Positions 374 through 24,266 of a DNA stretch of 64,000 nucleotides are shown here, in pieces. Where the stretch lies: positions 1,504,001-1,568,000 of the forward strand of contig CP182352.1 in the NCBI GenBank assembly GCA_048571215.1, in the 5' to 3' direction. Within the stretch, counting starts at the first letter, position 1. Each line of letters starts with the position of its first letter. Source of the stretch: Halarcobacter sp. (GTDB taxonomy: Bacteria > Campylobacterota > Campylobacteria > Campylobacterales > Arcobacteraceae). The notes beneath the pieces were generated by a model. The model made no database searches. It had not been told where the DNA came from and was given only the letters and a program-made list of their open reading frames with translations. The position numbers and the translations under genes are program-made.

Positions 374-1768
374 ATGGATACAAGAATTGAAAAAGATACT
401 ATGGGTGAAGTTGAAGTTGCAAATGACAAATACTGGGGTGCCCAAACCCAAAGAAGTTTACAAAACTTCCCTATTGGGGAAGAGAAAATGCCAAAAGAGA
501 TAATTGAAGCCTTTGCATATTTAAAAAAGGCTTGTGCACTTGCAAACAATCAGCTTGGATACTTAGATGATATAAAAACAAAAGCTATATCACAAGCTTG
601 TGATGAGATTGTATTAAAAAAACTTGATGATAATTTTCCTTTAGTTGTTTGGCAAACAGGTTCTGGAACCCAATCAAATATGAATCTAAATGAAGTTATT
701 GCAAATAAAGCTACTGAAATTTTAGGGAAAGATTTTAGACTTGAAAAACTAATCCATCCAAATGATGATGTAAACAAATCCCAAAGTTCCAATGACACCT
801 ACCCTACTGCCATGAAAATCGCCTTTGTACTTACAATACAAAAAAACCTAATCCCTTCAATAACTAAATTAAAATATACCCTTGAAGAAAAAAGTGTAAA
901 GTTTAGTGAAATAGTAAAAATTGGAAGAACTCACCTGCAAGATGCAACTCCCTTAACACTTGGTCAAGAGATATCAGGATATGTTGAGATGTTAAATAAG
1001 GCTTTGATGCAAATAGAAGATTGTATGAAATACTTATGTGAACTAGCTATTGGGGGAACTGCTGTTGGTACAGGAATCAACTGCCATAAAGATTTTTCAA
1101 ATCTTGTGTGTGATACTTTAAATAATCTAACAAATACAAAATATAGTTTTATCTCCCATCCAAATAAATTTCATGCACTAACATCACATGATGCAGAAGT
1201 TATGTTAAGTGGTGTTTTAAACGCCCTAGCCTCAAATCTAATGAAGATAGCAAACGATATTAGATGGCTCGCATCAGGTCCAAGATGTGGCATAGGTGAA
1301 CTAAATATTCCTGAAAATGAACCTGGAAGTTCTATAATGCCAGGAAAAGTAAATCCAACACAAAGTGAAGCTATGACAATGGTTGCCGTACAAGTTATGG
1401 GAAACCACACAACAATTTCAGTTGCTGCTAGTCAAGGAAATTTTGAACTAAATGTATTTAAACCTGTGATTGCTTACAATATCTTACAATCTATTAAACT
1501 GCTAAGTGATACTATGCTTGCATTTAATGACAACTGTGCTGTTGGTATTGAGCCAAATATGAAAAATATAGAAAAATATCTTAATGATTCTTTGATGTTA
1601 GTAACTGCTCTAAACCCATATATAGGTTATGAAAAAGCTGCACTTATAGCAAAAACAGCCCACAAAAATGGAACTAGCTTAAAACAAGAAGCTATAAACT
1701 TAGGATTCTTAACTAAAGAGGAGTTTGAAAGATATATAAATCCCAAAGATATGACATATCCTAAATAA
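374..1768 (+). CDS. fumC: Class II fumarate hydratase
   Basis: Signature [47 protein letters not shown]. Confidence 0.97.
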
Positions 1769-1782
1769 CATAAACTTAATAT

Positions 1783-1815
1783 TTGACAAAGTTTGACAAT
1801 ATGTTTTGATATATT
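1783..1815 (+). promoter_or_regulatory. Direct-repeat box TTGACAA-agt-TTGACAA plus extended -10 (TGaTATATT)
   Basis: 17-mer at 1783-1799, 10 nt spacer, TATATT at 1810-1815; identical 17-mer with identical spacing on the minus strand at 19971-19987. Confidence 0.7.
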
Positions 1816-1849
1816 ACAACCTAAATATATAATATAGGAGTAATATATT

Positions 1850-2461
1850 ATGCAAAACTTATCAATTTTGATAATTGACTTAGAAAATAACCTAAATAAA
1901 AGAGTTGAAAATATACTTAAAACAAATTTTAATAATATATTTTTTGTGAATAATGAAGATAATGTATTAAAAACATATAATCTTCATTATCCAGATATTA
2001 TATTTACAGATTTAAATCCTAATAATTATTTCAATTCTAATTTAATTACAAAAATAAAAGAAAACTGTAGTACTATAGTTATACTACCTGAATTTAAAAC
2101 CTTAGAGCATCTTTTAGAAACAATAAAAAATCATTTACTTAATTACACAATAAACAGATCTCAGATACAAAATAATACTATAATTCAATTGACTAGTGAA
2201 TATAAATGGAACAAACAAGAGAAAATTCTATTTTATTATAATAAAATTGTAAACTTAACATACTATGAAACACTTTTATTAGATAAACTAATTTCGACAC
2301 CTAACTACTGTGTTTCATATGAAGATATAGATTATCATGTATATTCAAATAATGAATTTAGTAAAAATTCATTAAGCTCATTGATTAAAAGATTAAGAAA
2401 AAAAATACCAAGCATATTGATTAAATCGTGTTATAGACAAGGATATAAGATAGTTATATAA
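1850..2461 (+). CDS. OmpR-type winged-helix regulator with degenerate, shortened receiver domain
   Basis: C-terminal wHTH (LTYYETLLL...SLIKRLRKKIP...GYKI); receiver keeps IIFTD but lacks the acidic pair and the conserved KP; RBS AGGAG. Confidence 0.8.
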   Translation: MQNLSILIIDLENNLNKRVENILKTNFNNIFFVNNEDNVLKTYNLHYPDIIFTDLNPNNYFNSNLITKIKENCSTIVILPEFKTLEHLLETIKNHLLNYTINRSQIQNNTIIQLTSEYKWNKQEKILFYYNKIVNLTYYETLLLDKLISTPNYCVSYEDIDYHVYSNNEFSKNSLSSLIKRLRKKIPSILIKSCYRQGYKIVI

Positions 2462-2493
2462 AATCTAGTATTATTTTATACTAGATTTTATAT
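2456..2493. terminator. Probable bidirectional terminator between convergent genes
   Basis: ATATAAAATCTAGTAT / ATACTAGATTTTATAT inverted repeat with a 6-nt loop, overlapping both stop codons. Confidence 0.65.
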
Positions 2494-5400
2494 GCTAATT
2501 TTTTTCTTCTTTTTATCTTCCTGCTTTTTAATTTCTTGATTAACTCCTGAATCTGTATTTTTTCTTGGAGTGTTGTTGCTTGTACCTGAAGGAGTTACAA
2601 ACAATACTGGTTGTTGAGTAGGAGTTGTTAAAGGCAATGTTTGAGGTGAAGTTGCAATTGGATTATTTATAGTAGTAGTTGTTGTCCCTATAACTGATTT
2701 GATATTTGTTGAAGTATCTTTTTTCAAGTTATTTATATTTATCCCTGTGATATAGATTCCATTTGAAGCTTTTGTTGTTAGGAAACCTTCCTTTAAAGAT
2801 ACATCTATTTGTTGAGATGAACTACCAATTGAACCAGTCAATGCCACTAAAGAGATATCCCCTGTGCTTGAAGATAAATTAGCTCCTGAATAATCTTCAA
2901 CTTTTAAAATATTTCCATTTAATGATTCTAAATCAATATTATTAACTGCATTGATAGAATTAATTACTAAATCATCACTAGCAACTATCTTTACATTGTC
3001 AGCTGACATTTTACTTTCTTGGGTTAATTTTCCTAAAGAATTTATTGTAATATTTTTTTGTGCATCGATATTAAAATTACTTATAGAAGCTAAATTTGTT
3101 ATATTTACTGAATCTTTTGTTTTTGCAATTAGCTTAAAACTATTAACAATTGCATTAATATCTCCACTTAAAGTTGATAAACTTACTGTATCACCAGCTT
3201 TTAATACCCCACTATTTTGAACAATTCCATAATATGACTCAAAATCTATATTCCTAGCACTTATATCTCCATTTTGTTCTATATCTGAAGATGCCCTAAC
3301 AACAAAATCCCCTAATAAACTATTACTGTTCAATACTGCTCTATCTGTTGTTAAGTAAATTGAACCATTAGTAGATGAGATAGAATCCTCATTTTGATTA
3401 AAATCTTTTACTTTTAAATTTATATTATTTTCTGCTTGTAGGTTATTTGTACTAGAAGCTTGGTTATTTGTAATATCAATTGAGCCTTGAGATGTAGCAA
3501 CTACATTTGAAGCATTTACATTTGCAACTATATCTAATCCTGCTTCCATATTTAAGTTTGTTGAGTTAACTTCTTTTGCATCTATTGTTAAAGCTTTTAA
3601 GTTTACATCTTGTGCTTTTACACCATTTAGGTTTAATCCCAAATCTGATTCTAAATAAGCCCTATTTTTTGCTTGTGCTTTTATTCTTGCACTATTAGCT
3701 TTAAAGTAATTTGATGATGTTCCTATATCTGCATTTGACGAAACCAATTCTAAAGAGTTTGATCCATTTGTTACAGAGTTTATTTGTGTTATATCATTTA
3801 CTGCTTTTAACACTACATCTTTTGCAATTATATCTCCTGTTTGTAATATTGTTCCATTTGATTGTATTACTAATCTATCTTTTGCTTTCATTGATTTTAT
3901 TGATGCATTATCTACATTTATATCTATTGAACCATTTGTTGCTTCCATAGTTGCATTTACTAATTCTTTTCCTACATACTTAATATCATTTACTGCTTGT
4001 AGGTTATTTGTACTAGAAGCTTGGTTATTTGTAATATCAATTGAGCCTTGAGATGTAGCAACTACATTTGAAGCATTTACATTTGCAACTATATCTAATC
4101 CTGCTTCCATATTTAAGTTTGTTGAGTTAACTTCTTTTGCATCTATTGTTAAAGCTTTTAAGTTTACATCTTGTGCTTTTACACCATTTAGGTTTAATCC
4201 CAAATCTGATTCTAAATAAGCCCTATTTTTTGCTTGTGCTTTTATTCTTGCACTATTAGCTTTAAAGTAATTTGATGATGTTCCTATATCTGCATTTGAC
4301 GAAACCAATTCTAAAGAGTTTGATCCATTTGTTACAGAGTTTATTTGTGTTATATCATTTACTGCTTTTAACACTACATCTTTTGCAATTATATCTCCTG
4401 TTTGTAATATTGTTCCATTTGATTGTATTACTAATCTATCTTTTGCTTTCATTGATTTTATTGATGCATTATCTACATTTATATCTATTGAACCATTTGT
4501 TGCTTCCATAGTTGCATTTACTAATTCTTTTCCTACATACTTAATATCATTTACTGCTGTTAAATCAACTTGACTTGATAGGGCATTATTATTTATATCT
4601 AAATTTATTTTTGAATTTGCAATAAGCTTTGGAGTATCTACCCTTGCAATAATATCTCCATTAACTGCATATAAACTTACTGTATCACCAGCTTTTAATA
4701 CCCCACTATTTTGAACAATTCCATAATATGACTCAAAATCTATATTCCTAGCACTTATATCTCCATTTTGTTCTATATCTGAAGATGCCCTAACAACAAA
4801 ATCCCCTAATAAACTATTACTGTTCAATACTGCTCTATCTGTTGTTAAGTAAATTGAACCATTAGTAGATGAGATAGAATCCTCATTTTGATTAAAATCT
4901 TTTACTTTTAAATTTATATTATTTTCTGCTTGTAGGTTATTTGTACTAGAAGCTTGGTTATTTGTAATATCAATTGAGCCTTGAGATGTAGCAACTACAT
5001 TTGAAGCATTTACATTTGCAACTATATCTAATCCTGCTTCCATATTTAAGTTTGTTGAGTTAACTTCTTTTGCATCTATTGTTAAAGCTTTTAAGTTTAC
5101 ATCTTGTGCTTTTACACCATTTAGGTTTAATCCCAAATCTGATTCTAAATAAGCCCTATTTTTTGCTTGTGCTTTTATTCTTGCACTATTAGCTTTAAAG
5201 TAATTTGATGATGTTCCTATATCTGCATTTGACGAAACCAATTCTAAAGAGTTTGATCCATTTGTTACAGAGTTTATTTGTGTTATATCATTTACTGCTT
5301 TTAACACTACATCTTTTGCAATTATATCTCCTGTTTGTAATATTGTTCCATTTGATTGTATTACTAATCTATCTTTTGCTTTCATTGATTTTATTGATGC

Positions 5401-8400
5401 ATTATCTACATTTATATCTATTGAACCATTTGTTGCTTCCATAGTTGCATTTACTAATTCTTTTCCTACATACTTAATATCATTTACTGCTTGTAGGTTA
5501 TTTGTACTAGAAGCTTGGTTATTTGTAATATCAATTGAGCCTTGAGATGTAGCAACTACATTTGAAGCATTTACATTTGCAACTATATCTAATCCTGCTT
5601 CCATATTTAAGTTTGTTGAGTTAACTTCTTTTGCATCTATTGTTAAAGCTTTTAAGTTTACATCTTGTGCTTTTACACCATTTAGGTTTAATCCCAAATC
5701 TGATTCTAAATAAGCCCTATTTTTTGCTTGTGCTTTTATTCTTGCACTATTAGCTTTAAAGTAATTTGATGATGTTCCTATATCTGCATTTGACGAAACC
5801 AATTCTAAAGAGTTTGATCCATTTGTTACAGAGTTTATTTGTGTTATATCATTTACTGCTTTTAACACTACATCTTTTGCAATTATATCTCCTGTTTGTA
5901 ATATTGTTCCATTTGATTGTATTACTAATCTATCTTTTGCTTTCATTGATTTTATTGATGCATTATCTACATTTATATCTATTGAACCATTTGTTGCTTC
6001 CATAGTTGCATTTACTAATTCTTTTCCTACATACTTAATATCATTTACTGCTGTTAAATCAACTTGACTTGATAGGGCATTATTATTTATATCTAAATTT
6101 ATTTTTGAATTTGCAATAAGCTTTGGAGTATCTACCCTTGCAATAATATCTCCATTAACTGCATATAAACTTACTGTATCACCAGCTTTTAATACCCCAC
6201 TATTTTGAACAATTCCATAATATGACTCAAAATCTATATTCCTAGCACTTATATCTCCATTTTGTTCTATATCTGAAGATGCCCTAACAACAAAATCCCC
6301 TAATAAACTATTACTGTTCAATACTGCTCTATCTGTTGTTAAGTAAATTGAACCATTAGTAGATGAGATAGAATCCTCATTTTGATTAAAATCTTTTACT
6401 TTTAAATTTATATTATTTTCTGCTTGTAGGTTATTTGTACTAGAAGCTTGGTTATTTGTAATATCAATTGAGCCTTGAGATGTAGCAACTACATTTGAAG
6501 CATTTACATTTGCAACTATATCTAATCCTGCTTCCATATTTAAGTTTGTTGAGTTAACTTCTTTTGCATCTATTGTTAAAGCTTTTAAGTTTACATCTTG
6601 TGCTTTTACACCATTTAGGTTTAATCCCAAATCTGATTCTAAATAAGCCCTATTTTTTGCTTGTGCTTTTATTCTTGCACTATTAGCTTTAAAGTAATTT
6701 GATGATGTTCCTATATCTGCATTTGACGAAACCAATTCTAAAGAGTTTGATCCATTTGTTACAGAGTTTATTTGTGTTATATCATTTACTGCTTTTAACA
6801 CTACATCTTTTGCAATTATATCTCCTGTTTGTAATATTGTTCCATTTGATTGTATTACTAATCTATCTTTTGCTTTCATTGATTTTATTGATGCATTATC
6901 TACATTTATATCTATTGAACCATTTGTTGCTTCCATAGTTGCATTTACTAATTCTTTTCCTACATACTTAATATCATTTACTGCTGTTAAATCAACTTGA
7001 CTTGATAGGGCATTATTATCTAAATATGATGAACCATTTGTTGCTTTTGCACTAAAAATATTTGCATTTACTTTAAAATAGTTAGATGAAGAACCAATAT
7101 TTCCATTTGTAGAAACTAATTCAGTAGAATTTGAAGCATCAATTATTGAATTTGTTTGTATCATTTCATTAGCTTTTAACACTACATCTTTTGCAGTTAT
7201 ATCTCCTGTTTGAGATATTGTTCCATTTGCTTGTATATATAATTTCTCTTTTGCATCTACTGTTTTTAATACTGCGTTATCTACTGTTAAACTTATTGAG
7301 CCACTACCTGATTTTATATTATTACTTTGCACAAAATCTTTACCTATATATGTCATATCATTTTTAGAATATAAGGTATTCTGACTTGATTTAGCACTAT
7401 TATTTAAACTTATTGAACCAAGACTAGAACTAGCATCTACATTTTTACTATTTATATTAGCAGTAAAGTCATTTGTTGAACGTACTAAAAGATTCTGAGC
7501 ACTTAGGTTAGTTGCATCAATAGATGATGCTTGTAAACTTACATTGTCACCAATAATACTAGATATTGAAAAACCAACTGGATTAGAAAAAGAATATTCA
7601 GATAGATAGATATCTTTACCAATTGCTGAAATATCTTTTGTAGCATCAATAACTATTGAACCCCCACTATTTGATCCTATATTACCATTTGATGCAATTA
7701 AATTAATATTACCACTTTTAATCATTGAACCATTTGATTCAATACCAGCTGTACTTAAAATATTTAAGGTACCATTTCCATTATCAATATTTTTTGTTAA
7801 ATTAGTTTTTACATTTTGAGTATTTGTAATATTAATAATTCCATTGTTTTGACCAAGTTTATTAAATTCAATATTTTGATTTCCTGTTAAATAACCATTT
7901 AATAAATCAATATCTTGTCCATCTAAGGTAAAACTAGCATTATTTTTACTATTTGTTATAGAACCTAAAGATAAATCTCTTAGAGTATTATTTTGTATAT
8001 CTATAGTTGGTGTTCCATCAAATAAAGAGATAGTTCCACTTCCTAGTAAACTACCATCATCAAAACTAATAGAAAAGTGCCCACCTGAAGTAGAAATATC
8101 TTTTAATTGTATCTTATCTGCTGTAGCACTTTCAACATATGAATTACCAGCTAAAGTATTTTCAGATAATTGTATATATTTTGCTTGAGCTCCACTTGTA
8201 ATTGTTGCATTGTCAAAATAAACATCAATCTTATTATCTACACTTATATCAATATCTCCAAAAGCACTTAAATTCTTTATACTATTTCTTGTAGGTATAT
8301 TCCCCACTCCTATATAATTTCCTTGTGCATCAAACACTGTATACTTTCTTGTGTCATACATATCAAGAAATAAATCTTCTTTTGATTCCATACTCAATAT

Positions 8401-11400
8401 ATTTATATTTGCAGTTGTATTCGCATCATAATTGTCAGTTGTAATCCCTTTAATACCAATTATTGATTTACCTCCACTATATGTTCTTACAGTTGGTGTA
8501 ATAATTCCATCAATATACATATTTAAATACCATACATCAATATCACCATTATATGCATCTAATTCATAATTAGTTGCTAAAGGTACACCAAAAGTATTGT
8601 GTTGATAAATACTTCCATAATCATTTGTCACTTTAAGCAATCCACCAGCGACTGAAATATCACCAAAGTGTACATCAGAATATCCATGATTTTCTACGAT
8701 AAAAGATGGTTTTATATTATCTACTATTGAATTATTAATAGTATAACTTGGCTGACTATTATCAATTGTTGTTATATCTACAGTAGGTTGGTTTGTACTT
8801 ACATCTAAATTAAAATTATCAATAGCTAAATTATAATCAGAATTATTAACAATCTTAACCTCTGGATATAAATTTCCCATAAAATTAACTGGCGAACCAA
8901 TTGTTATATTTTGAGCTTTTAAAATTGGAGCATTAATTGTAAATATATTACTACCCTCATAATTTAAACCTGATAATCTAATATATCCACTACTATCAGG
9001 TATATATGAGGCTTGAGTAGATTGACCATTTGTATCAAATATGATTGTTTTTGGAGTTGTTAGTAGATTTATTGCACCATTTAAACTAATAAATTCATTA
9101 TCGGTATATGGATTATAATCACCATTATAATACCCTATACATACACCATTTAAACAATTTTTTTCATTTTCATTACTTTGTAGAGTTGAAGATACATTAG
9201 TTTTATCATTATTAACATTAATACTTCTTCCAGAAATAGTTGAAGAATTACTCGTCATAATATACTGGGTATCTTTTACATGATTTACACCAAAACTCCA
9301 GCTACCATCAACTACTACCATAGTTCCTCCAACATTTGCTTTACTAACTGCTCTTTCAGAATTGATTAGTGTAGTCATGTTAAGATTGTTTTCAGCTGTT
9401 AATTCAGTATTATCAGCATATACAGTATTATAAATTTTAGATATTAAATATGATTCAGCAGTTCGTGGTCCCCCTGCACTGTTCATATAGCTATAATTAT
9501 TAGAATATAAATCAATATAATTAATAAGTGACTTTGTATTAATGTTTAATGCATCTATTTTTGCACCGTAAAGATAAATATTATTATCCATATTCGCAGA
9601 AAGCTCAGTTTTTACTTTATTACTTCCCACTACTGATAAATCTACATTTGAACTATTGTCTGCATTTACTTTAAACTGACCTGATATTGATAATATATTT
9701 ACATCTCCATTTAATGCTTTTAATTCAAGTGTAGGTGTAGTTGAATCGTCAGTTAGGATAATATTTGAAAGATCTGTTACATCAATATTTGTAGTATATG
9801 TTGGAAATGCAGCTAGTGCTATAGTAACGTCACCATCCTCTACAGTATTAATTGAAAGAACTCTATTTGTTCTTATATCAATGTTACCACTATTTGAAGT
9901 TAATTTTGAACCATTACCAATCCTATTTACTAAAGTTCCATTAACCACTTCATTAATATTAACTATTCCTCCTGCAGCAACTCCTATTAGTGCCCCATTT
10001 GCAGTTAGTGCATGTGCAATATCATTTTCTGATTTTATATTTAAATCTTTTTCAGTAGTTATTATTGAATTTTTACCTACTTTTGTATTATTGTCATAAT
10101 TTAAATTATTATCAATATATGAACCTCCTAATCCTATAGCACCACCAGCTGCTACTTGTGTATCAACGACAGAATAAGATCTAAAAAAAGAATTTAAATC
10201 TAACTTATTAGCTTGAATAATTGTATCATCATCAATAGATGCAGTTGTAGTAAAGTTTAAATTAGAAACAGATACACTTCCACCTGCACCAATTAAAGCA
10301 CCACCTGCCGTTCCACCAACTTTTGTATAATTTCTTGCTATATTATTAGCTAACACTTTTACATTACCATTGTTTGCATAAACGTTTGCATTTTTTTCAA
10401 TTGTTGCTGAAACTTTTTGAGTAGGTGTAGTTGTACTAAAAGCATCATCTACTGATAAACTGTTAGTTTTATTATCAAGAGCAGTTTGAGTAATAGTTGA
10501 ATGACCATGAGAACCTAGATTATTCCCAACAGATGAAGAAGTAAGATTATTATTAGCCTGTGATAATACAGTTTCTCCACTATTTGAAGGACTCATTGCA
10601 CTTTGTGCATTTGAAGATAATGCAGAATTAATATTTAGTATAGATACAGCACCTGCAACTCCACCTATAAAACCTCCCGAATAAGCACTAATTTGATTAC
10701 TAATAAACTTATCAGAATCAGCTGATACAGTTACACCTTTTTTAGCATAAACTTCACTATTTTCTCCAAGTGTTGCTTCAACATTATTTTTAATTGTATT
10801 TAGCTCTATTGATGCACCTACACCTGCACCAGCACCAAAAGCTGCTGTACCTATATTATCAGTAATAGAAATAGCACTTTTACTATCAATCAAAAATGTA
10901 GAATTGTCACTGTTACTAGATTTATTTACAGTCATTGTTTCAGTGCTATCATTTGTAGTATCTAACAAAGTATATGCTTTTGAATCTATATCTAAATAGT
11001 TTACTACTACAGTTCCTGCAAGACCTGCATATAAACCTAATGCACCTGTCATTCCTGTTTGGTCTAAAGTTGTATTAGTATTAGATTTGATTGACATATC
11101 TCTTTTTGCTTTCAAATCACTATTTTTTACATATGCACTATTTTTATTTGTAATTGTGTTTACTAAAACTGTACCCCCTGCTCCAACAGAACCAGCAGCA
11201 GCGGTACCTAACCATTGTACAATATTTGCAGTTTCATTTGCATCTACTATCAAATCTTTATCACTAACTACATTAGAGTTATCTATATATGCTTTATTTT
11301 TATTATTTATATATGTAACTTGTACATTACCAGCTACACCTGCAGTAAGACCCGCTGCACCTGCTACAATATTATTTTCAATATTTTCATTAGCTATACT

Positions 11401-14400: not shown

Positions 14401-17400
14401 AATATTGTTTTCAGCTTTTATATTAACATTTTGAACCCCAGTTGTTGAAGCACTTAAATTTTCATTTACTTTTGCACCCTCTTCTATTCTTGCCTTTACA
14501 ATATTTCCCATAGTAAAAAAGTTTACTGAACCAGAGATAGATACTTCTTGAGCTCCACCATTTGATTGAGCCCAAGTTGTTGCAAGTTTTTTTTGTACAC
14601 CAAAATTAGTATTTATACTTTTATTAAATGAACTTAAAAACTCAGCTAAAGAATTAAAATTTAAATATGCAGAATCATATTTCATCTCATTTAAAGCAGT
14701 AATATCAATATTTCCATTACTATTAACAATACTATTTTTTCCAATTGATGCATCTACAATATTATCAATTTCAGTTATCATAACTGCACCACCAATTGAA
14801 TAATCATATGATACTGGTTTTCCATCTTTGCCAACACCATTATCTATTGTTGAGATAGCTGAACTTTTTATTCCCTTTTTCCCAGTCGTATTATTTGCAA
14901 AAAAATTATTCTGAGCATTTATAGTTATATCACTAGCTATATCAACTTTATTATTATCAGATTCCAAAGTTGTTGATTTATCAGATATTTTTGCAGTTAC
15001 AGTTGATTTATGTCTTGAATAACCAACAGCTGCACTTGCTCCCAAATTTGTACTAGAGCCCACATCAATGCTATTTTGTTTCGTATCCAAATAATTTGTT
15101 GCAACTGCTTTTATCGCAAAATCAATTTGCCCTTTACCACTTGTATCAAATTGTTTCATTAAATCTTTTACTCTTGACACTTGTTCTGCTGAAACAAAAT
15201 CAGGTAAAGAAGTAGAACCTACTCCAGATTTTGCAATTGTTTCAAGAAGTTCATTATTTGCTTGTGCATTTACTGAGAGATTATTTGATTTAAGTTTTCC
15301 ACCTGCAATAGCTTGAGTTTCTAAATTTGACTGATTTAATGCCAAGGCTGCACTTAATTGACCATTTTTATCAGCAGTTCCAGTTGCTGATGATTTTATA
15401 TTTCTTGTACTTTTTGCATCAATATTTATTGCTTGATTACTTTTTAATTCAGCACCATTATTTACTATTGCATTTGATTTAATATCACTTGTAATATAAG
15501 AGATAACCATATTTGGTGTACTAAGTCCTACAGTTTGGCCCGTTTTAGAGCTTACATCTGATAAATTTTTCAAATATGCATCACTTGTAATTGTCATATC
15601 TTGATTACTGTTAATTGTAACTCCATCATTTATTGTTGTTTCGGCATGACTTATACCATCACTAGCTCCAATAGCAAAACCAAAAAATATCTTAGAAAAA
15701 TCAATACTAGTTGAAGAAATACTCTCTAAAGTAATATTATTACCTTCAAGAATTGAACCATTATTTATTTCTATAGAAGCATCATTATTTGCATATGCAT
15801 AAGTAACAGGTGTTAATGAGTTAAGTATGGTATCTCCAATATTTAAAGCTGTATTCGTAAATTTATTTTCTGTATCTATATCAAACACTCCTGAAGATGT
15901 AGCAGAAGATGTGATTGTAATATTTCCTGTCGTATTATCTTTTTGGGCTTGATTATAACTTTTTATTGTTGCATTATTTATTGTGATATTTGCTATGTTT
16001 GTAATAGGTAAAACACTACTATTATTAATTATTGCTTCAAGTAAAATATCCCCTGAAGCATATCCATTATCAGCATAACTTAAAATTTTTGCGTTTGTTC
16101 CTATACTGATTTTTGGTGCACGCAATATAATATTCCCAGAATCTCCTATTGAACTTGCAGTTTCAGCGGTAGTTGGATCTGAACTACCTGTATTTCTTGA
16201 TGAGATAATTACTCCATCACCGACAGTTAAAGTTTCTGTAGCTTCTTGTAATATTTGTGTTCCATTTGAAAAAACATTTGCCAATAGTGAGATATTTTTG
16301 GGATCAATATAAAAAAGTCCATTTTCTCCGTTATAAGCATTTAGAGTAATATTACCACCGTTTAATATAACATCATTTTTAGCACTAAGTTCAGCAAATC
16401 CACCATTACCCTTTAAAAGTCCACCTGTTGCCATAAAAATTACATTTTTATCAGAGTATGCCAGATTTTCTGCAAAAATGTCTATATTTCCACCATCTCC
16501 GATATTGGCTGCATTTGTTTGAAGTTTAGAGTTACCTAGTAAAAATATATTATTTGCTGCTTTTATCTCAATATCACCTGCATTTTGACTTAATGTAGCG
16601 TTTGTATTTATCTCTCCCGTATTAAGTACTGTTCCATTTAATCCAGTAATTTTAACACTATCACCTTCATCTTTCACTGTTACTAGTTCATCTATTTTAT
16701 CTGTATTTATAATATTATCAATAACATTATTAGCTTGTTGTTTTGACATTATTATTGGTTCATCACTATTTGAAACCTCTTTATACTCATATTGTATTAA
16801 ACCTTGTGGATCAAATTGTATAGTAAACTTTTCTGTTGCACCCAATGATACTTTCCCAGCTTTTGCAATAATCTTTCCTTCATTGCTTACCATTGGCGAA
16901 CTTAATACAACAAAGCCTTGAGGAGAAACTTCAATAGTACCTTTATTTACTATTGTTCCTAAATTTACATCAGTTTGATCAAAAATATAATTTTCATTTA
17001 AAAAATCTTCATTTGAGATATCTAAAGTTGTAGCTAAAAAGCTATTTGCATTAATAGATGAGTTTTCTCCAAAAAATATACCTGCAGGATTTACTAAAAA
17101 AACCCTACCATTTGCTTGCAGTTTACCCAAAATTGAAGATGGATTATTTTGTATAACCCTATTTAATACTACCGAATTTGAGTTTGGTTGTATAAACTTA
17201 ACTAACTCATTTACTCCAATATTAAAGGTGTTATAATTAATAATAGCATTATTTGAAGCAGCTATATTCATATTATTTTGTGTTTGTGAAATAGATACAT
17301 TACCAGCAACAGTATTTGCTCCTGTTGGTAATGCACTTAAATTAACTGGTAACAATATCAACTGAACAGATACTGCACTTACTGAAATCTTTTGAAGAAA

Positions 17401-17418: not shown

Positions 17419-19298
17419 TACCAAACCTTAGAATTTAATACTACATAAAGATTAGTTTTATCTTTAGTTCCACTATCTGATGAATTTAAAGGAAAGCCAA
17501 TCGTTGTTTTAAGAAAAGTATCTTTAAAAACTTCTGCAATAACTTCAAAACCTGTTCCTAACAAATAAGAATATCTATCATCCCCAACAACTGGCTTATT
17601 TATATAAATTCTTCCATAATCTAAAAATAAACCAAGCTTTAAACGTTCATCAACATAATCTATATCTGTTTGAGGTAAAATAAAATACTCTAAAGAGGTA
17701 TCAAAACCTGTATCACCAACAAATTTTGAGGAAGCATAACCCCTAACACTATTTAAACCACCCAAAGAGTAAACTTCAGAAAGTGGCAATCTATCCTTTG
17801 AAAACTGAGTGTTAAGTCTAAATGATAATTCACCAAATAAATTTATCTTTTTTTGATACATAAGAGTTGAATTTAATTTAATATAACTACTAGCTTGGTT
17901 TGTTCTTGATTGTGTCGAAGTAGCCTCTGACAAACTTCCCTTTGATATATTAATATTAGTATATAAAGTACTAAATACACCATTTTCCTGTGTATTAAAA
18001 CCAGCACTAAAGACCTTTAATCTATCTAATGAAGAGAGTGCATTAAAAAGGTAACTTTTTGTTTTTTTGTATTGATAATCAAATCTTAAATTCATACTTT
18101 CAGATATGGTTCTTTTTAATGGATGAGAAAATCCAAGAGTATAGATTTTTGTTTCACCCTCTATACCTAAGTTTGCAAAATCAGAACCGCTTACTATATA
18201 GTTTGAAGATAAAGCAGTAAAATGTAATTTTGTATGTTTGTTATTTATAGGTAAAGAATAATCAAAATTTTCAAGTTCCATTCCTGAAGGATTTATACTT
18301 CTCATAATATTTAAACTTGATAAATCACCATCAATAATACTATTTCCATAAATCAAATCTGCACGAACTCTATTTCTTGAAATCGCCTTTGAACCTAAAT
18401 TATCATAGGAAAGATTTGCACTAAAAGGTAATTCATCTTTTACTTTTAAAACCACATCTGTAGAAGCAGGAGCTGAACCTTTTTTCATATATGATTTAAC
18501 TTCTAAATTTGAATATTCATTTAAAAGAAGTATTGATTCTACAAGCTTATTATAATTTAAATTATCTCCATTTTTTTTATCAAAAGATTTTTTAATAAAA
18601 TCGCTACTATAGTATTTATTCCCCTCAACTGTAATATTTCCATATTTACCTTGAACTAATAGAATCTTTAAAATCTCATTAGATAGATCTTGCTTAGGTA
18701 TTAATACCTTTATAAAAAGTCTATTTTTTTCTTTTAAATACTTTTCAATTACCTCTTTGATTTTATTTAACTCATTAATACTATAATATTTTTTAGTAAA
18801 TAGATTTACAATCCTTAATAATTCACCTCTTAAATCATTTGGTAAATTTATAATCTCTATATGTTTAATAAAATATTTACCTTTATTTGTCACTTTTCTT
18901 TTATTTGTTTTTTTAGATGATAAGCTCATCTTAGATGGTTTGTTTTTTAACTCTTTGAGTTTTTTCTTTGTTTCTAGACTATTATTTTTATGTTCCTTAT
19001 TAATTAAAGAGTTATATTTGTCTATATCATGAATCTTTACAAAGGGATAATTAACCCACCCTTCAATTGTTTTAAACCAAGGATAAGTACTAGATTTATT
19101 TAAATCAATATCTATAATATCTTTTTGTTTAACATATCTCTTTTTTTTAACTTTTATTACTTTACTATCTACACTCTTATCTTCATATATATTATTATTT
19201 AATTTAAATAGATTGATTCTATTTTCTTTTGCATACAAATTTAGTGCGAAAAATATTGTAAATAGTATTGACAGGTTTTTTTTATTTAAAAGTTTCAT
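17418..19298 (-). CDS. TpsB (ShlB/FhaC/HecB family) outer-membrane transporter
   Basis: Signal peptide, POTRA-like segments, YDNLG, loop-6 motif SLGGLNSVRGY, terminal W; directly upstream of TpsA. Confidence 0.92.
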   Translation of the reverse strand: MKLLNKKNLSILFTIFFALNLYAKENRINLFKLNNNIYEDKSVDSKVIKVKKKRYVKQKDIIDIDLNKSSTYPWFKTIEGWVNYPFVKIHDIDKYNSLINKEHKNNSLETKKKLKELKNKPSKMSLSSKKTNKRKVTNKGKYFIKHIEIINLPNDLRGELLRIVNLFTKKYYSINELNKIKEVIEKYLKEKNRLFIKVLIPKQDLSNEILKILLVQGKYGNITVEGNKYYSSDFIKKSFDKKNGDNLNYNKLVESILLLNEYSNLEVKSYMKKGSAPASTDVVLKVKDELPFSANLSYDNLGSKAISRNRVRADLIYGNSIIDGDLSSLNIMRSINPSGMELENFDYSLPINNKHTKLHFTALSSNYIVSGSDFANLGIEGETKIYTLGFSHPLKRTISESMNLRFDYQYKKTKSYLFNALSSLDRLKVFSAGFNTQENGVFSTLYTNINISKGSLSEATSTQSRTNQASSYIKLNSTLMYQKKINLFGELSFRLNTQFSKDRLPLSEVYSLGGLNSVRGYASSKFVGDTGFDTSLEYFILPQTDIDYVDERLKLGLFLDYGRIYINKPVVGDDRYSYLLGTGFEVIAEVFKDTFLKTTIGFPLNSSDSGTKDKTNLYVVLNSKVW

Positions 19299-19927
19299 TA
19301 TTTTCTAGTCAATACTGCTCTAATTGATTTTTTCTCATCTTTTTTTAACTTCACTGGTTTAAATTCATATGTATTGTAACCATCTTTTTCAACTCTAATA
19401 TTATGCATTACACTAGCAGTTATAGGTATATATTTATTTGAACTTTTTCCAATAAATTTTCCATCTACATATACTTTATCATTAGAAACATTACTTCTTA
19501 TTTGCAAATACCCTAAAGTTTTATTCTGATCAATCTTTTTTTGTATAAGTTTTAAAGTTTTTATTGCTTCTTTGTTTTTTTGTTTTGCAGCTAATTGATA
19601 ATAAAAAATTGCAAGTTTTAAATTCTTTTCAACTCCAACACCTTTTAAATAAGCATTTCCCATAGTATTTTGAGCTACATCATAACCATCATTAGCACTT
19701 AATGTATAAAAAGAGATTGCTTTTTTTACATCTTTTTTCACACCTAAACCTAACTCATACATATAACCTAGATTAAATTTTGCAACCATTCCCTCTTGAG
19801 CAATTTTCAAAAAAATCTCTTGAGCTTTTTTATAATCTTTTTTATCAAAAGCTTTTTTACCATCTTCTATATTTGCATTGGCTATTGATATAAATATAAC
19901 CATAAAAGCAAGTAGTAGTTTTTTCAT
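19298..19927 (-). CDS. Exported Sel1-repeat protein with C-terminal PEGA-like domain
   Basis: Signal peptide (ANA), AKFNLGYMYELGLGVKKD and AQNTMGNAYLKGVGVEKN repeats, GYLQIRSNVSNDKVYVDGKFIG...IRVEKDGY; TAATG-coupled to tpsB. Confidence 0.85.
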   Translation of the reverse strand: MKKLLLAFMVIFISIANANIEDGKKAFDKKDYKKAQEIFLKIAQEGMVAKFNLGYMYELGLGVKKDVKKAISFYTLSANDGYDVAQNTMGNAYLKGVGVEKNLKLAIFYYQLAAKQKNKEAIKTLKLIQKKIDQNKTLGYLQIRSNVSNDKVYVDGKFIGKSSNKYIPITASVMHNIRVEKDGYNTYEFKPVKLKKDEKKSIRAVLTRK

Positions 19928-19954
19928 ATGTTCTCTCCTAATTTCAACTTAACA

Positions 19955-19987
19955 ATTGTATAAAAAAAGTTTGTCAAACTTTGTCAA
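19955..19987 (-). promoter_or_regulatory. Direct-repeat box TTGACAA-agt-TTGACAA plus -10 (TACAAT) of the TPS operon
   Basis: Plus strand TTGTCAAACTTTGTCAA at 19971-19987; TACAAT on the minus strand at 19960-19955 after a 10 nt spacer. Confidence 0.7.
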
Positions 19988-20310
19988 TTTGAAAGTTTCA
20001 AATAAATTTAATATAAGGATAGAAAAATATTGATAAATTATTTGCTACTGTAATATATAATAAAAATATATATTTAAAAGCTAGCATTGAACTTTAATTC
20101 ATTGAATCAGTAAATAGATTATATATAATATATAAAAAATCTATTTTATCTTTTAACACAAATAAAGAATATTAAATATTAATATATGTGTAAAAATGCA
20201 ACAAACAATTCCTATTTTACAATTATAAATAAAATTGATAAAACTATAAGTTTAATATTTCTTTAATTGAGGTAAGTTTTTAATTAAAAAGTAAAAAAAT
20301 TAGGAAGAAT

Positions 20311-22092
20311 ATGCGATTTATTTTTTTAATACTCCTTTATATGATAAATTTATCTGCAAATAGTATTTCAATAATTGAATCAAAATATTTTTTAGATAAA
20401 CAACACTCTTATACAACTGAAAATATTTATAAAAATAAAAATAAATTTACCCCTTATAATTATGAAAATGCAACTTTTGGTTTTAAAAAAGACACCATAT
20501 GGTTGTATTTTAAAGTTAAAAATAATACAAATATAAAACAAGAAAATTTAATAGAATTTTTATATAGACTTCACGACTATATCTATATAATGGAGTATAA
20601 AGATGGTCAAGTTATTGACCAATATTTAACAGGAGACTTAACAAAACATAATACTAGAAAAATAGATTCTAATGACTTACTTATTCCATACACATTAGAT
20701 AAAAATGAAACAAAAGAGTTTATCTTTAAAATAAATTCTGACAGTAACTTAAGTATTGGTCTAAATTTTTTATCAAAAAAACAATACTATGAAAACTCAA
20801 AACAAAATAGCATAGCTCTTGCTCTTTATTATGGAGCAACCTTAATTATGCTGTTTTATAACCTGTTCCTTTTTATAATGATAAAAGAAAAAGTATATTT
20901 ATATTATGTTCTTTTTCACTTAACTTTTGCCCTTGCACTATTAACATCAAATGGTATATCATTTACTTTATTTTGGCCTAATTTCCCACAGATAAACTCT
21001 TTTTTTATGCCTTTAATTTTTTCTTTAACAAATATATTTTCTGTATTATTTGCTATAGATTTCTTAGAAATAAAAAAATATAGTAAAAAAATACTCTATT
21101 ATTTATACTTTATTTTACTTATCCATATTATACTTTTACTTAATATTTTTATTGAAGGCTATTCTATTCTTGAAACAATGCTTAGTTTTTCTTTAATATC
21201 GGTGTTTTCATTATTTTTTATTGCTATTTATACCCTTATTAAATACAAAACTATTTCATCAAAGTTTTTTGTTATAGCTTGGAGTTTTTTATTATTTGGT
21301 TCTATCATAGAAGAATTACAAGGTCTGGGTATTATAAAAATGGGACCAATTTTATCTTATTCATCTCAAATTGGTGCATTCTTTGAGCTAACTTTATTAT
21401 CTTTTGCATTAGCATACAAATATAATATTGTATTCAACAAACTTCAAAAAACAGAATCAAACCTAAGAGTTTTAAATGCAAATTTGCAAGAAAAAGTTGA
21501 TGAAAAAACTAAAGATTTAAAATTATTAATAAAAGAGATGCACCATAGAGTAAAGAACAATTTTCAATTTATTCTTACTTTCCTTTGGGCCCAAAAAAAC
21601 TCCACTAAAGATGAAAACTCTTTAAAGGCAATAAATCAAACTACACAAAGAATCTATGCTATTTCATCTTTACATGAATTACTTAACATATCTACTACCA
21701 TCTCAATAGATATTAAATCATATATTGAAAATATGCTAAATTCATTTGTAGAACAAGATAAAAATATCACTTACGAAAAAAATATTGACAATATTACTCT
21801 TGATTATGATAAAACAGTTTCAATTGGACTTATTTTAAATGAACTAATTACAAATAGTAATAAGTATGCTTTTAAAGATATTAGTAATCCAACAATTAAA
21901 ATATTATTTTATAAAAAAAATGATATTTATATATTAGATTATTGTGACAATGGAATAGGTTTTGATAAGAAAATATTAAATAATAGTTTAGGCTTGGGTT
22001 TTGAGCTAATCTATGGTTTAGCAAAGAAGATTCATGCTGAAGTAAATTTAGATACCAAAAAAGGTACAAGATTTGAAATAAAATTTAAGTAA
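20311..22092 (+). CDS. 7TM-DISM sensor histidine kinase (DISMED2-like periplasmic domain, 7 TM, HisKA_2, HATPase)
   Basis: FGFKKDTIWLYF periplasmic motif, YYGATLIMLFYNLFLF TM start, H-box EMHHRVKNNFQ, NELITNSNKYAF, DNGIGF, GLG. Confidence 0.9.
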   Translation: MRFIFLILLYMINLSANSISIIESKYFLDKQHSYTTENIYKNKNKFTPYNYENATFGFKKDTIWLYFKVKNNTNIKQENLIEFLYRLHDYIYIMEYKDGQVIDQYLTGDLTKHNTRKIDSNDLLIPYTLDKNETKEFIFKINSDSNLSIGLNFLSKKQYYENSKQNSIALALYYGATLIMLFYNLFLFIMIKEKVYLYYVLFHLTFALALLTSNGISFTLFWPNFPQINSFFMPLIFSLTNIFSVLFAIDFLEIKKYSKKILYYLYFILLIHIILLLNIFIEGYSILETMLSFSLISVFSLFFIAIYTLIKYKTISSKFFVIAWSFLLFGSIIEELQGLGIIKMGPILSYSSQIGAFFELTLLSFALAYKYNIVFNKLQKTESNLRVLNANLQEKVDEKTKDLKLLIKEMHHRVKNNFQFILTFLWAQKNSTKDENSLKAINQTTQRIYAISSLHELLNISTTISIDIKSYIENMLNSFVEQDKNITYEKNIDNITLDYDKTVSIGLILNELITNSNKYAFKDISNPTIKILFYKKNDIYILDYCDNGIGFDKKILNNSLGLGFELIYGLAKKIHAEVNLDTKKGTRFEIKFK

Positions 22093-22100
22093 GGTGAGTT

Positions 22101-22793
22101 ATGGATAAAAAACTAAATGTTTTGATAGTGGAAGATGAACCATTAATCTCTATTTTCATAAAAAAAATAGTGATAAACATGGGAGCAAATATTATAGATA
22201 TTTGTGATAATTGTGATGATGCAATACAAGTTCTTAAAAATGAAAAACCAGACCTAATATTTATGGATATAAATTTAAATGGTCCAATAGATGGAATAAA
22301 TATAATTAGAAGTATAAATTTTTCCTATTCACCAACTATATATTTTGTAAGTGCTTATGGAGATAAAGATACAATAGAAGATGCTCTTTCTACAAACCCA
22401 TATAACTATTTAATAAAACCTATAAAAGAAGAGGATATCGAAATAGCTGTTACTCTAGCAAAAAAGAGATTTCTATACTCTTCTAAAAGTAAGGCTCAAA
22501 GTAACAATCAGTTTTTCAAATTTGATAATGAATATAAATGGGATAAGATAAATAATACTTTATTATACAAAGATGAGAAAGTTGATTTAACTAACTATGA
22601 AACATTACTTCTAAAATTACTTATAAAAAATCCTAATAAAACAGTCACTTATGAGGAAATTCACTATTATGTGTATGAAGATTCTGAATATAGTTTAAAT
22701 GCAATCTTCTCATTAATAAAAAGAATAAGAAAAAAAATTCCAAAAGATTTTATAAAAGCATCATATAAAAAAGGCTACAAACTTGGAATTTAA
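22101..22793 (+). CDS. Response regulator (intact receiver plus OmpR-type wHTH), cognate of the upstream kinase
   Basis: IVEDE, FMDINL, SAY, IKP all present; C-terminal wHTH; 8 nt after the kinase stop. Confidence 0.9.
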   Translation: MDKKLNVLIVEDEPLISIFIKKIVINMGANIIDICDNCDDAIQVLKNEKPDLIFMDINLNGPIDGINIIRSINFSYSPTIYFVSAYGDKDTIEDALSTNPYNYLIKPIKEEDIEIAVTLAKKRFLYSSKSKAQSNNQFFKFDNEYKWDKINNTLLYKDEKVDLTNYETLLLKLLIKNPNKTVTYEEIHYYVYEDSEYSLNAIFSLIKRIRKKIPKDFIKASYKKGYKLGI

Positions 22794-24141
22794 TAAATAT
22801 TTAAACAAAAATAAACTTAACTTGAAAATAACCACAACAAAAAAGTATTTGTCTACTATATTATATATAGGGTTTTTATTTAATCTAAATGCTGATGATA
22901 AATTTTCTATTTATCCAAAAATTGATTTATTTATTAATTACGAATCACAAAACCTTGACTATAGTCCATTAGGACAGGTGGTAAATGGCATTCAAAAAAA
23001 CAATTTTTCAAACTCAATTATTGGCGCTGAGATTGGATTTGATATCAATTATAATAATTTTGATCTAGTTATTCAAGGAAGCGGTATCTCAAGTTTGAAT
23101 AATCTGTCAAACAATAATCTAAAAATAGACTCTACTTATTTTGACAATAACAACAAAGATTTTTTTTATCTTTCAAACTTATATCTACAAAAAAATATAG
23201 ACAATTTTAACTTTAAACTTGGAAGACAAGAATATAATAATCAATTAGTAAATAGAAATAAAAAAATTATATCAAATCAATATGAAGGTATCTATTTTGA
23301 TTATGAAAAAGATAATTTTAAAATTGATTCAATGTATTTTAAAAAAGTTGCAGCATCAAGCATATCAAATGTAGTTCCATTTAATCATGATTATGGAGTA
23401 TTAGGATATGGAAAAGGTTATAATATTGGAAAATTTGTCTCTGTTTCAAAATATATTTCAAATAAAGAATACAATACTAATGGTGCACTTATCACTAATT
23501 TAACATATGGAAATGAACGCAATAATATAAATATACAAAACCTCTATGCAGATGATTTTTTCAATACTACAAATCTAAACCTAACACTTTCTAAAGAGTT
23601 TAATGATTTAGTTTTAAGTTCAAAACTTGGATTTATAAAACAAGTTGACGTAGGTGAAAACTATCTAGCAAAAGATTATGGCAATAAAAAGATTGATGGT
23701 AAAATGTATCAAGGTAGTTTAAATTTTGAATATAAAAATTTCTTTGGATCATATACTCATGTTAAAACACCTTATAATACAAATGCTGTATTAAATGGAA
23801 CTCTTATATCCCCTTTTTCTAACAAATTAAGTTGGATTTATGGTCCACAAACTTCACACTCATTTATCGCAGATACAGTTTCAAATCAATTTATACTTGG
23901 TACTGGATTAATGGTTTTTGATATACCATCTCTTCTAATGATTGCAAAAATAGATTATGAAATAGACAAAAATAATATTAATTCAGGACTTACTCTTCAT
24001 ACTAGAGAAAACTACTTATATTTTGAATCTTATATTTCAGATTCTTTAACCTATACAATTCAATATTCTGATGCTAAAAATATAGATTTATTAACAAAAA
24101 GAAATAAAAATTTAAGAACATTCATAAACTATAAATTTTGA
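22783..24141 (+). CDS. Outer-membrane beta-barrel protein, OprD/Opr-porin-like
   Basis: Signal-peptide-like segment ending LNA, FKLGRQ motif, terminal LRTFINYKF; start uncertain (TTG 22783 or 22822). Confidence 0.65.
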   Translation: MEFNKYLNKNKLNLKITTTKKYLSTILYIGFLFNLNADDKFSIYPKIDLFINYESQNLDYSPLGQVVNGIQKNNFSNSIIGAEIGFDINYNNFDLVIQGSGISSLNNLSNNNLKIDSTYFDNNNKDFFYLSNLYLQKNIDNFNFKLGRQEYNNQLVNRNKKIISNQYEGIYFDYEKDNFKIDSMYFKKVAASSISNVVPFNHDYGVLGYGKGYNIGKFVSVSKYISNKEYNTNGALITNLTYGNERNNINIQNLYADDFFNTTNLNLTLSKEFNDLVLSSKLGFIKQVDVGENYLAKDYGNKKIDGKMYQGSLNFEYKNFFGSYTHVKTPYNTNAVLNGTLISPFSNKLSWIYGPQTSHSFIADTVSNQFILGTGLMVFDIPSLLMIAKIDYEIDKNNINSGLTLHTRENYLYFESYISDSLTYTIQYSDAKNIDLLTKRNKNLRTFINYKF

Positions 24142-24178
24142 TAAGTCTAAGTTAATAATAAACTAACAGTTACAAAGA

Positions 24179-24219
24179 CTTAGTATATTTTCCATAATCA
24201 TATTAAAAAATATACTAAG
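24179..24219. terminator. Inverted repeat, possible bidirectional terminator
   Basis: CTTAGTATATTTT-15 nt-AAAATATACTAAG between convergent genes. Confidence 0.45.
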
Positions 24220-24266
24220 CTTAAGATAAATCTTATTCGATTTTTAGTTCTTGAATTTTCACACTA

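Follow-up and report, generated by a model that had tools for sequence, protein, structure and literature searches.

BvgAS, PhoBR, CpxRA and EsrAB are global regulators with large regulons. The closest described counterparts to the secretion genes studied here are under their control, namely the pairs BvgAS-fhaB/fhaC, PhoBR-pdtAB, CpxRA-lspB/lspA2 and EsrAB-ethBA, in each of which a TpsA/TpsB pair answers to a two-component system, as in our locus (PMC5422565). The closest counterpart to its regulators is CmrRST of Clostridioides difficile which, like our locus, has a single pseudo-receiver regulator in addition to a kinase and a typical regulator of the OmpR family (PMC12548384; PMC12632262). 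A 2025 review models CmrRST as acting through its kinase-regulator pair to raise the level of the constitutively active pseudo-receiver, and names the on/off switching of pseudo-receiver regulators as the main open question (PMC12632262).

The locus lies in a 64-kb stretch of DNA (the window) and occupies a 22.4-kb insert that is likely a self-regulating secretion cassette. ORF calls with domain matches across the window identified all seven genes that the original prediction had assigned to it (rr1, tpsA, tpsB, sel1/PEGA, the kinase, rr2 and the porin); these and the associated elements are as follows:

1783..1799, forward strand: box 1, TTGACAAAGTTTGACAA, a period-10 direct repeat TTGACA-N4-TTGACA
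1850..2461, forward strand: rr1, 203 aa, OmpR-type winged helix and truncated pseudo-receiver
2451..2497, no strand assigned: A/U-rich hairpin at the point where rr1 and tpsA converge, between their stops
2488..17418, reverse strand: tpsA, 4976 aa from ATG
17418..19298, reverse strand: tpsB, 626 aa, ShlB/FhaC/HecB barrel and POTRA
19298..19927, reverse strand: sel1/PEGA, 209 aa, Sel1 repeat and PEGA, first gene of the TPS operon
19971..19987, reverse strand: box 2, TTGACAAAGTTTGACAA, identical to box 1 (17/17)
20311..22092, forward strand: sensor kinase, 593 aa, 7TMR-DISMED2 (PF07696), 7TM (PF07695), HisKA_2 and HATPase
22101..22793, forward strand: rr2, 230 aa, intact receiver and winged helix
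22783..24141, forward strand: porin, OprD/Campylobacter MOMP type of outer-membrane barrel, 11-nt overlap with rr2

The insert and its two-partner secretion genes

The expected empty site was found, as in 6 of 14 relatives' loci fumC has the nifX-like gene as its immediate, convergent neighbour; another single gene lies between them in four, and in the remaining four the two are not adjacent. The insert ORFs included no integrase or transposase, and inspection of the junctions by eye showed no sign of a target duplication. The six-plus-one gene order is not supported as a conserved system, and this fixed architecture is not general: homologues occur in unrelated contexts, e.g., the three full-length Sel1/PEGA homologues are all in housekeeping regions, no two-component system adjoins the only tpsB/tpsA relative whose flanks are complete (G213), only one of six good porin homologues is beside a TPS locus, and homologues of the porin, of Sel1/PEGA and of TpsA/TpsB are distributed independently of one another. 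Most of the block is retained in only one soil relative, at ~91% identity (sel1, kinase, RR2 and porin, with tpsA at least in part), where one contig carries sel1 together with the kinase and a second carries kinase-RR2-porin; its alignment over the TPS promoter ends at 19978, the kept part seen comprising the -10 and the proximal half-site. The soil runs, searched at 80% likeness, left tpsB and much of tpsA uncovered, a gap that proves nothing.

The arrangement that does recur places a 7TM-DISM kinase gene a short way upstream of TPS-domain genes: such a gene lies within 5 kb upstream in 26 of 60 cases (1.06 expected), across nine genera. We prefer this count to one of tpsB-to-kinase links within 20 kb (19/43, 2.6 expected), as the latter took in links that span unrelated genes (the second locus of G135, and G147).

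The sel1-tpsB and tpsB-tpsA junctions are both TAATG stop/start overlaps, and the two larger genes have the attributes of a two-partner (type Vb) secretion system: TpsA carries an N-terminal TPS domain (aa 33-273; PF05860 at 110 bits vs a cut-off of 33.5, with a match to TIGR01901), and the adjacent gene encodes an Omp85-family transporter with POTRA (PF03865 at 105 bits, with POTRA matches). From what is known of these families, TpsB would export TpsA, which would form a beta-helical surface filament. LktA_tand_53 repeats cover ~aa 800-2400 of TpsA (214 bits vs a cut-off of 50, 17 stretches), repeats that are 98-99.5% identical with a period of 1494 bp cover ~aa 3470-4770, the only cysteines are the pair at 2757/2762, and the tail is Pro/Thr-rich and basic. 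The last 400 residues have no Pfam or NCBIfam match. We rejected a CDI or polymorphic toxin, there being no C-terminal toxin domain among these matches and the stop being followed by the hairpin and the converging rr1, not by an immunity gene.

The NF012204 adhes_FxxPxG N-terminal domain has no match in TpsA, and a sub-cut-off match was seen only in the G213 relative. Searches of aa 401-2000 against plasmids, and of tpsB against a genome-contig collection, gave no match; a search of 400 genomes of the phylum turned up a single TpsB relative at E<=1e-35. Residues 2401-3300 had no matches among 1.84 billion representatives, a blank that is uninformative as their own cluster was missed too, and in the Atlas they gave only unnamed clusters under 0.9. 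The hairpin beyond tpsA folds at -20.0 and -16.9 kcal/mol (z -7.0 and -8.4) and is likely a bidirectional terminator; a scan for terminators with G+C stems made no call there.

The direct-repeat box and its candidate reader

The box TTGACAAAGTTTGACAA has two exact copies and no one-mismatch copy in the 3,614,513-bp genome, against 0.002 exact copies expected by a Markov model, and the sole two sites are the promoters of rr1 and of the TPS operon; the shared promoter box that had been noted is confined to this locus. No box was found at the promoter of the kinase-rr2-porin operon. Each copy is positioned where a -35 element would sit, as is the PHO box for PhoB. Box 2 is followed 11 nt downstream by the -10 TACAAT (19960-19955), and box 1 at the same distance by a -10-like TATATT (1810-1815), weaker than the -10s at other loci; a second, separate consensus promoter, TTGATA-16-TATAAT (1806-1833), overlaps that of box 1. 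At the TPS promoter neither half-site yields consensus -35/-10 spacing. Each half-site is in itself the sigma-70 -35 consensus.

RR1 and RR2 carry winged helices of one type. Among the 48 Trans_reg_C matches of the genome the two are reciprocal best matches (51% identity vs 37-44% for the next) and their recognition helices match closely, which bears out the prediction of paralogous DNA-binding domains; the receivers belong to different clades in our trees, and this rules out the two genes being a local duplication. RR2 is a natural chimera, joining a receiver of the clade that partners HisKA_2 kinases to a winged helix of the RR1 lineage. A profile of this winged-helix type (3 rows) had matches in 7 of 183 other genomes of the family, and in five of these seven a neighbouring promoter has the same period-10 box, followed by a -10 some 11-12 nt downstream: G177, G109, G044 and G120 have the box with a -10 hexamer and G011 has a one-mismatch version, while the flanks fetched for G033 and G083 have no box. 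The sole exact TGACANNNNTTGACA in the G044 genome sits ~10 nt behind the regulator's stop. As background, TGACA-N5-TGACA had two matches in 1.80 Mb of other loci. A position-weight matrix ranked the two boxes of the window first (22.2 bits, the next at 17.9), a ranking that is partly circular, the training sites having been chosen by the window's GACA core. We found no further winged helix of the RR1/RR2 type at E<=1e-24 among the 400 phylum genomes. The recurrence of the box beside the same winged-helix type in five of seven genomes supports a regulatory link, and the comparison suggests that this type reads this box.

The sensor kinase had been likened to RetS and LadS, which are hybrid kinases with a fused receiver. 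The likeness holds for the sensor (PF07696 and PF07695), for which a profile (6 rows) matched the RetS periplasmic structure 2XBZ weakly (E 0.004), and fails for the catalytic part, which is of the HisKA_2 type with no receiver domain. RR2 has an intact receiver (E11/D12, D56, S84 and K106) that is 64% identical to the regulator adjoining the closest full-length homologue of the kinase, itself 54% identical to our kinase in the sensor and 59% in the catalytic part (locus L124). This match makes the kinase and the RR2 receiver partners, and phosphotransfer between them would be expected from the behavior of their families.

RR1 is of a different kind. Its receiver retains D10 and D54, but three of the five active-site residues are lost (L11 replaces the second acidic residue, P80 occupies the Thr/Ser site and N102 the Lys site) and helix alpha5 is deleted. 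A homodimer prediction for the receiver scored 0.08, too low to be informative. Intact regulators of this type have an acidic-aromatic loop ahead of the recognition helix, which presumably contacts sigma, and RR1 retains this loop. The single orthologue found (P0003) has the same length, the same deletion and 84% identity, the winged helix being better conserved (90%) than the receiver (79%). The receiver groups, on a long branch, with those of the canonical-kinase class, and intact regulators of the same winged-helix type adjoin canonical kinases in G177, G109 and G044. As it is without the second acidic residue, T and K, RR1 falls under the definition of an atypical response regulator, in which at least one of DD, D, T and K is missing (PMC12632262).

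Proposed control of the filament operon and possible roles of RR1

We propose that the 7TM-DISM kinase phosphorylates RR2, that RR2 would then bind both box copies and switch on the sel1-tpsB-tpsA operon and rr1, and that RR1, without the receiver alpha5, would then likely act as a phosphate-independent latch that keeps the two promoters switched on. We think it probable that the kinase and RR2 control the TPS operon through the box. The complete scheme, with RR1 as a positive feedback latch, has in our view about an even chance of being right, and the positive sign of the feedback is its least certain element; given that RR1 has a role at all, we would lay equal weight on its being an amplifier and on its not being one. 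Two observations from the OmpR/PhoB family favour the scheme: the alpha4-beta5-alpha5 region serves both for dimerisation and for contact with the DNA-binding domain (PMC11253607), and a PhoB that has lost its receiver is constitutive in DNA binding (PMC4415409). Telling against it are the boxless flanks of G033 and G083, the soil-relative alignment that shows no more than the -10 and proximal half-site of the TPS promoter, the weaker -10 behind box 1 and the identity of each half-site with the sigma-70 -35 consensus. The original prediction of a single signal-responsive module survives in its core, the local kinase-regulator pair most likely controlling both the TPS operon and rr1 by the shared box, while its suggestion that the porin admits the ligand is without support. 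The porin is not generally linked to TPS loci and its operon has no box, and we rejected it as a ligand gate; it is treated as a co-transcribed passenger. Its sequence has no match in Pfam (including PF03573), NCBIfam or the PDB, and an OprD-like fold is suggested by the comparison of its Atlas model with an OprD cluster (TM 0.82, both structures being predicted).

Feedback of the opposite sign is somewhat unlikely: RR1 might bind the box, dimerise or activate poorly, and compete with phosphorylated RR2, so setting a threshold or limiting a costly filament. With alpha5, part of the dimer face used in this family is gone, and the genome offers RR1 no target besides the two boxes. In addition, rr1 has its own promoter with an 11/12 consensus match and no terminator was found between fumC and rr1, so that rr1 may be made without RR2; such strong expression, with possible fumC read-through, would suit a standing competitor. 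It also tells against the latch scheme, since a permanently active RR1 made independently of RR2 would make the kinase redundant. Against feedback of the opposite sign, the free effector domain of PhoB binds DNA constitutively (PMC4415409), and the loop before the recognition helix is retained in RR1. It is improbable that RR1 is merely what remains of an older cognate regulator after the loss of its HisKA kinase, with little effect on a TPS operon controlled by RR2 alone; its long-branched receiver of the canonical-kinase class, the intact regulators of its type beside canonical kinases and the finding of a single orthologue would fit, but that orthologue shares the deletion and a 90% identical winged helix, and the box before rr1 is a perfect copy of that of the TPS operon. 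Least probable of all is a chance mosaic at an insertion hotspot, in which RR1 alone or plain sigma-70 on TTGACA drives the TPS operon and kinase-RR2-porin serves other targets: the other inserts at this site, the separate assortment of the homologues and the boxless kinase operon would agree with it, but RR2 has the box-associated winged helix with no other box in the genome, the half-site spacing of the TPS promoter is not consensus, and the kinase-beside-TPS arrangement recurs in nine genera.

Comparison with described systems

With two promoters and a predicted operator, the regulon of the proposed latch offers a close to minimal setting for studying the role of a pseudo-receiver regulator, and RR2 represents a natural, old swap of DNA-binding domains that rewires a sensor to a new output. 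Many 7TM-DISM kinases of the family adjoin secreted filaments with readable private boxes, so that each filament promoter is a ready reporter for DISMED2 ligands. We tentatively speculate that the Arcobacteraceae hold a plug-and-play filament library, in which a 7TM-DISM kinase, a regulator and a private direct-repeat box accompany each giant secreted protein, with sensors re-assigned by natural swaps at the receiver/winged-helix linker; here an alpha5-deleted regulator, whose regulon is itself and the TPS operon, might convert a transient signal into bistable expression of a 500-kDa filament, the on-state being heritable. In the literature searched, with subscription journals mostly outside its coverage, we found no description of a linkage between 7TM-DISM and two-partner secretion, and no co-mention of '7TMR-DISM' and 'two-partner secretion'. 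The co-mention of 'Arcobacter' and '7TMR-DISM' in that literature is a table entry.

TpsA shares LktA_tand_53 repeats above cut-off with the Fusobacterium leukotoxin LktA family (NF012206), and in both the transporter gene precedes that of the passenger (lktBAC, PMC6386562); TpsA differs from the family in its N-terminus, which is the FHA-type TIGR01901 domain and not the LktA-family NF012204 domain, and from LktA in a further C-terminal part of 2,500 aa without a family match. The box resembles the PHO box of E. coli PhoB in being two direct repeats for a winged-helix regulator, while the period is 10 nt vs 11 nt and the sequences are unrelated on the coding strand (PMC4415409). Pseudomonas RetS and LadS have the 7TMR-DISMED2 and 7TM sensor in common with our kinase (PMC7695008), which differs in having a HisKA_2 core and a co-encoded DNA-binding regulator in place of action through GacS; their calcium or glycan ligands are not transferable to it. 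CmrRST is one operon, whereas here the pseudo-receiver gene rr1 stands apart as a unit with its own copy of the box, at a distance of 18 kb from the kinase; RR1 also departs from CmrRST in being without alpha5 and in having as its only apparent targets itself and the TPS operon. Lastly, unlike BvgAS, PhoBR, CpxRA and EsrAB, the kinase pair described here has two box sites in the genome and travels with its TPS genes in the insert.

The inserted cassette and its relatives

The locus at 1783-24141 lies in a closed genome of 3.61 Mb with 28.5% G+C, and the seven genes originally noted there are real ORFs whose domains were borne out by domain scans. Its main features are as follows:

1783-1799 (+), box 1, a 17-bp direct repeat of period 10
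1850-2461 (+), rr1, winged-helix regulator RR1
17418 (-), start of tpsA (4976 aa), in the minus-strand operon with sel1 (Sel1/PEGA) and tpsB
19987-19971 (-), box 2
20311-22092 (+), 7TM-DISM kinase
22101-22793 (+), rr2, winged-helix regulator RR2
22783-24141 (+), porin

TAATG overlaps join sel1, tpsB and tpsA, and we placed the tpsA start at 17418 because of the overlap between the latter two; rr2 and the porin gene overlap by 11 nt, and rr1 and tpsA converge on a strong hairpin. The empty fumC/nifX-like site that had been proposed as a check does exist in relatives: in 14 of their loci around the nifX-like gene the two genes are directly adjacent at six, have one other gene between them in four and are not adjacent in four, and therefore the block is an insert at an insert-taking site. 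This gap (window 1768-1783 and 24141-24267; loci L036-L039) holds varied inserts across relatives, including one that resembles a 401-aa ORF of the window's genome (G000) in two and one that resembles a 187-aa ORF in two. Further along the window, a 1654-aa ORF (33939-38903, -) has a start that by eye resembles a protein kinase domain. We conclude that the locus is a real, inserted TPS cassette, and very probably a self-regulated one.

Conservation of the seven genes as one system proved narrow, with most of the block present in one soil relative and its parts assorting separately elsewhere. The soil contigs come from three runs (X5, X6 and X8) amounting to one independent study. In X5 a single 1001-nt contig, and in X8 a 765-nt contig, carries sel1 with the kinase start; kinase, RR2 and porin lie together on a single contig, with 309 differences over 3638 nt; an X6 contig of similar depth ends within tpsA; and the flank past the porin is unlike the window's. 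Proteins at 88% (TpsB), 84% (RR1) and 93% (RR2) identity also occur in the collection, with no link found to the soil organism, and one run, possibly the source of the window's genome, confirms the window's 12000-24400 in one piece. A good porin homologue occurs in 6 of 183 family genomes, in one of which (G072) its neighbour is a TPS locus that includes a 7TM-DISM pair, and the three full-length Sel1/PEGA homologues all lie among unrelated genes. The search for TpsB relatives above 35% identity gave one genome out of 150 in the family, G004, whose copy sits at a contig edge, and one out of 400 in the phylum, G213, whose TpsB locus has no two-component system next to it. Among TpsB/TpsA relatives whose flanks are complete, the closest (L090-L091, G213:C1:1533092-1552313) is followed by a 1946-aa autotransporter, with no regulator adjacent. 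At L124, the locus of the kinase's closest full-length homologue, the giant protein opposite is a different one and carries NHL and FG-GAP repeats.

Pairing of 7TM-DISM kinases with giant genes

Across the 36 genomes with kinase positions (150 of 166 kinase matches listed, one duplicate fragment dropped), a 7TM-DISM gene lies at most 5 kb from 26 of 60 TPS-domain genes, always upstream and in nine genera, against 1.06 expected; this count treats related genomes separately, and kin are not independent. HisKA_2 and canonical kinases both occur at the paired loci. The window's genome has two further 7TM-DISM/HisKA_2 pairs beside giant secreted genes, and in both cases the promoter carries a period-11 repeat of its own:

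G000:C1:3093216-3105892, second TPS pair
G000:C1:1761041-1772219, pair beside a 2899-aa lipoprotein-like gene

With two start sites shifted to downstream ATGs, 17 of 27 giant-gene promoters adjacent to a two-component system have a private direct repeat that scores no lower than the 90th percentile for 1435 promoters from the window's genome, as against none of the four without a known adjacent system. By eye, the boxes follow regulator clades (e.g., TTCTAAC-N4-TTCTAAT, common to one clade).

Two genomes, G017 and G082, each have five TPS-domain genes (one query) versus one TpsB match (another), and a 7TM-DISM pair lies upstream of several of their passengers; sharing of transporters in trans may explain this, as may TpsB genes missed by the search. 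Separately, one 7TM-DISM/HisKA_2 clade adjoins a FeeM-type N-acyl amino acid synthase gene at 12 of 49 listed loci (L105, L108-L111, L113, L116, L118, L119, L121, L122 and L130; Pfam confirmed for one). At the window genome's own such locus, outside the window (G000:C1:2585899-2589977), the box TGTGAC-N5-TGTGAC precedes the synthase-like gene and the second regulator; it occurs 13 times in the genome, in nine cases no more than 100 nt from a gene start. The arrangement is a candidate autoinducer circuit with an N-acyl amino acid signal.

A chimeric regulator and its probable box

RR2 shares 64% identity with the L124 regulator in the receiver and 23% in the winged helix, and 24% and 51%, respectively, with RR1. 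The receiver and winged-helix trees (28 rows) disagree: constraining the winged-helix data to the receiver clade gave p-AU 0.0025 and the reverse constraint 0.0001, for groups defined after the first trees had been inspected. Five of 41 RR2 homologues (RR2 itself and four at 61-93%) have the RR1-type winged helix, which argues that the domain swap is old and stable; the other 36 have similar receivers (45-70%) and winged helices at only 21-35%. Judging direction, in unrooted trees, from this 36-to-5 split, we consider it likely from sequence comparison that a single linker crossover put a HisKA_2 kinase and receiver onto a pre-existing box.

That box, TTGACAAAGTTTGACAA, has two copies genome-wide and no one-mismatch copies, and the looser TTGACA-N4-TTGACA occurs in the same two places only. 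At both, a -10-like hexamer follows 11 nt past the second half-site; no such repeat was found at the kinase promoter. Among 48 winged-helix matches in the genome RR1 and RR2 are reciprocal best (51%; next 37-44%), and the box-type winged helix is confined to them. A profile built from RR1, RR2 and a winged helix of G177, searched at E<=1e-24, matched in 7 of 183 other family genomes. In G177, G109, G044 and G120 a neighbouring promoter has the period-10 box, followed 11-12 nt on by a -10 element, and in G011 it has the box with a single mismatch; no box was found in G033 or in G083, whose regulator appears to belong to another clade. The association was discovered in G177, which also contributed to the profile, leaving the other six genomes as the test; four of them have the box. 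One G177 box precedes a FadL gene and a second lies upstream of the kinase, and G044 has two boxes, its sole exact genome-wide match lying ~10 nt behind the regulator. A reversed control pattern gave 0-3 matches per genome, so box position, not mere occurrence, is what counts; the background is two box-pattern matches in 1.80 Mb of other loci. In G177 (L228, C168:4678-8780) a fragmented kinase gene, with a sensor like the window's and a canonical HisKA core, adjoins an intact RR1/RR2-type regulator and two boxes, one before the FadL gene.

RR1 and the predicted outputs

RR1 retains D10 and D54, but its second acidic residue, Thr/Ser and Lys are missing, and it has lost 22-25 residues spanning alpha5; a modest model (pLDDT 73, pTM 0.49, 6 sequences) has four strands and four helices with no beta5 strand or separate alpha5. 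It fits the definition of an atypical response regulator given in PMC12632262 and is a conserved pseudo-receiver. Its orthologue has the same deletion (winged helix 90%, receiver 79% identity). PhoB genetics reportedly attributes inhibition of the DNA-binding domain to alpha5. The alpha4-beta5-alpha5 region restrains the DNA-binding domain and dimerises in the OmpR/PhoB family (PMC11253607), and PhoB without its receiver binds DNA constitutively (PMC4415409). On these grounds we favour RR1 as a putative phosphate-independent amplifier or latch. Counting against this are the near-consensus promoter that rr1 has of its own (such matches being no commoner here than in shuffles) and the read-through that it may receive from fumC, which would suit a brake. 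In the soil relative the alignment took in box 2 no further than its proximal half.

In TpsA the TPS domain is accompanied by LktA-type repeats, a single cysteine pair and a 1,300-residue repeat block (~3115-7019; aa 3470-4770) of 1494-bp period and 98-99.5% identity, suggesting recent length change. Repeat number, given here as assembled, may vary among cells or strains. By analogy with FHA/HecA, as described in PMC5422565 and PMC2147049, the likeliest role is that of a surface filament for attachment, ahead of an LktA-like cytotoxic one; TpsA has no recognisable toxin tip, and no immunity gene was found. In its predicted structure the porin resembles OprD/MOMP, and nothing linked it to signalling, leaving its proposed part in ligand entry unsupported.

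Our literature searches found no description of a family-wide 7TM-DISM/TPS gene pairing, of a natural output-domain swap such as RR2's, or of a regulator without alpha5 whose regulon comprises two promoters. The window's sensor weakly resembles that of RetS; however, the calcium bound by LadS and the mucin glycans to which RetS responds (PMC7695008) are not transferable to it. The cassette's parts all belong to known kinds, and the nearest three-protein circuit is CmrRST of C. difficile.
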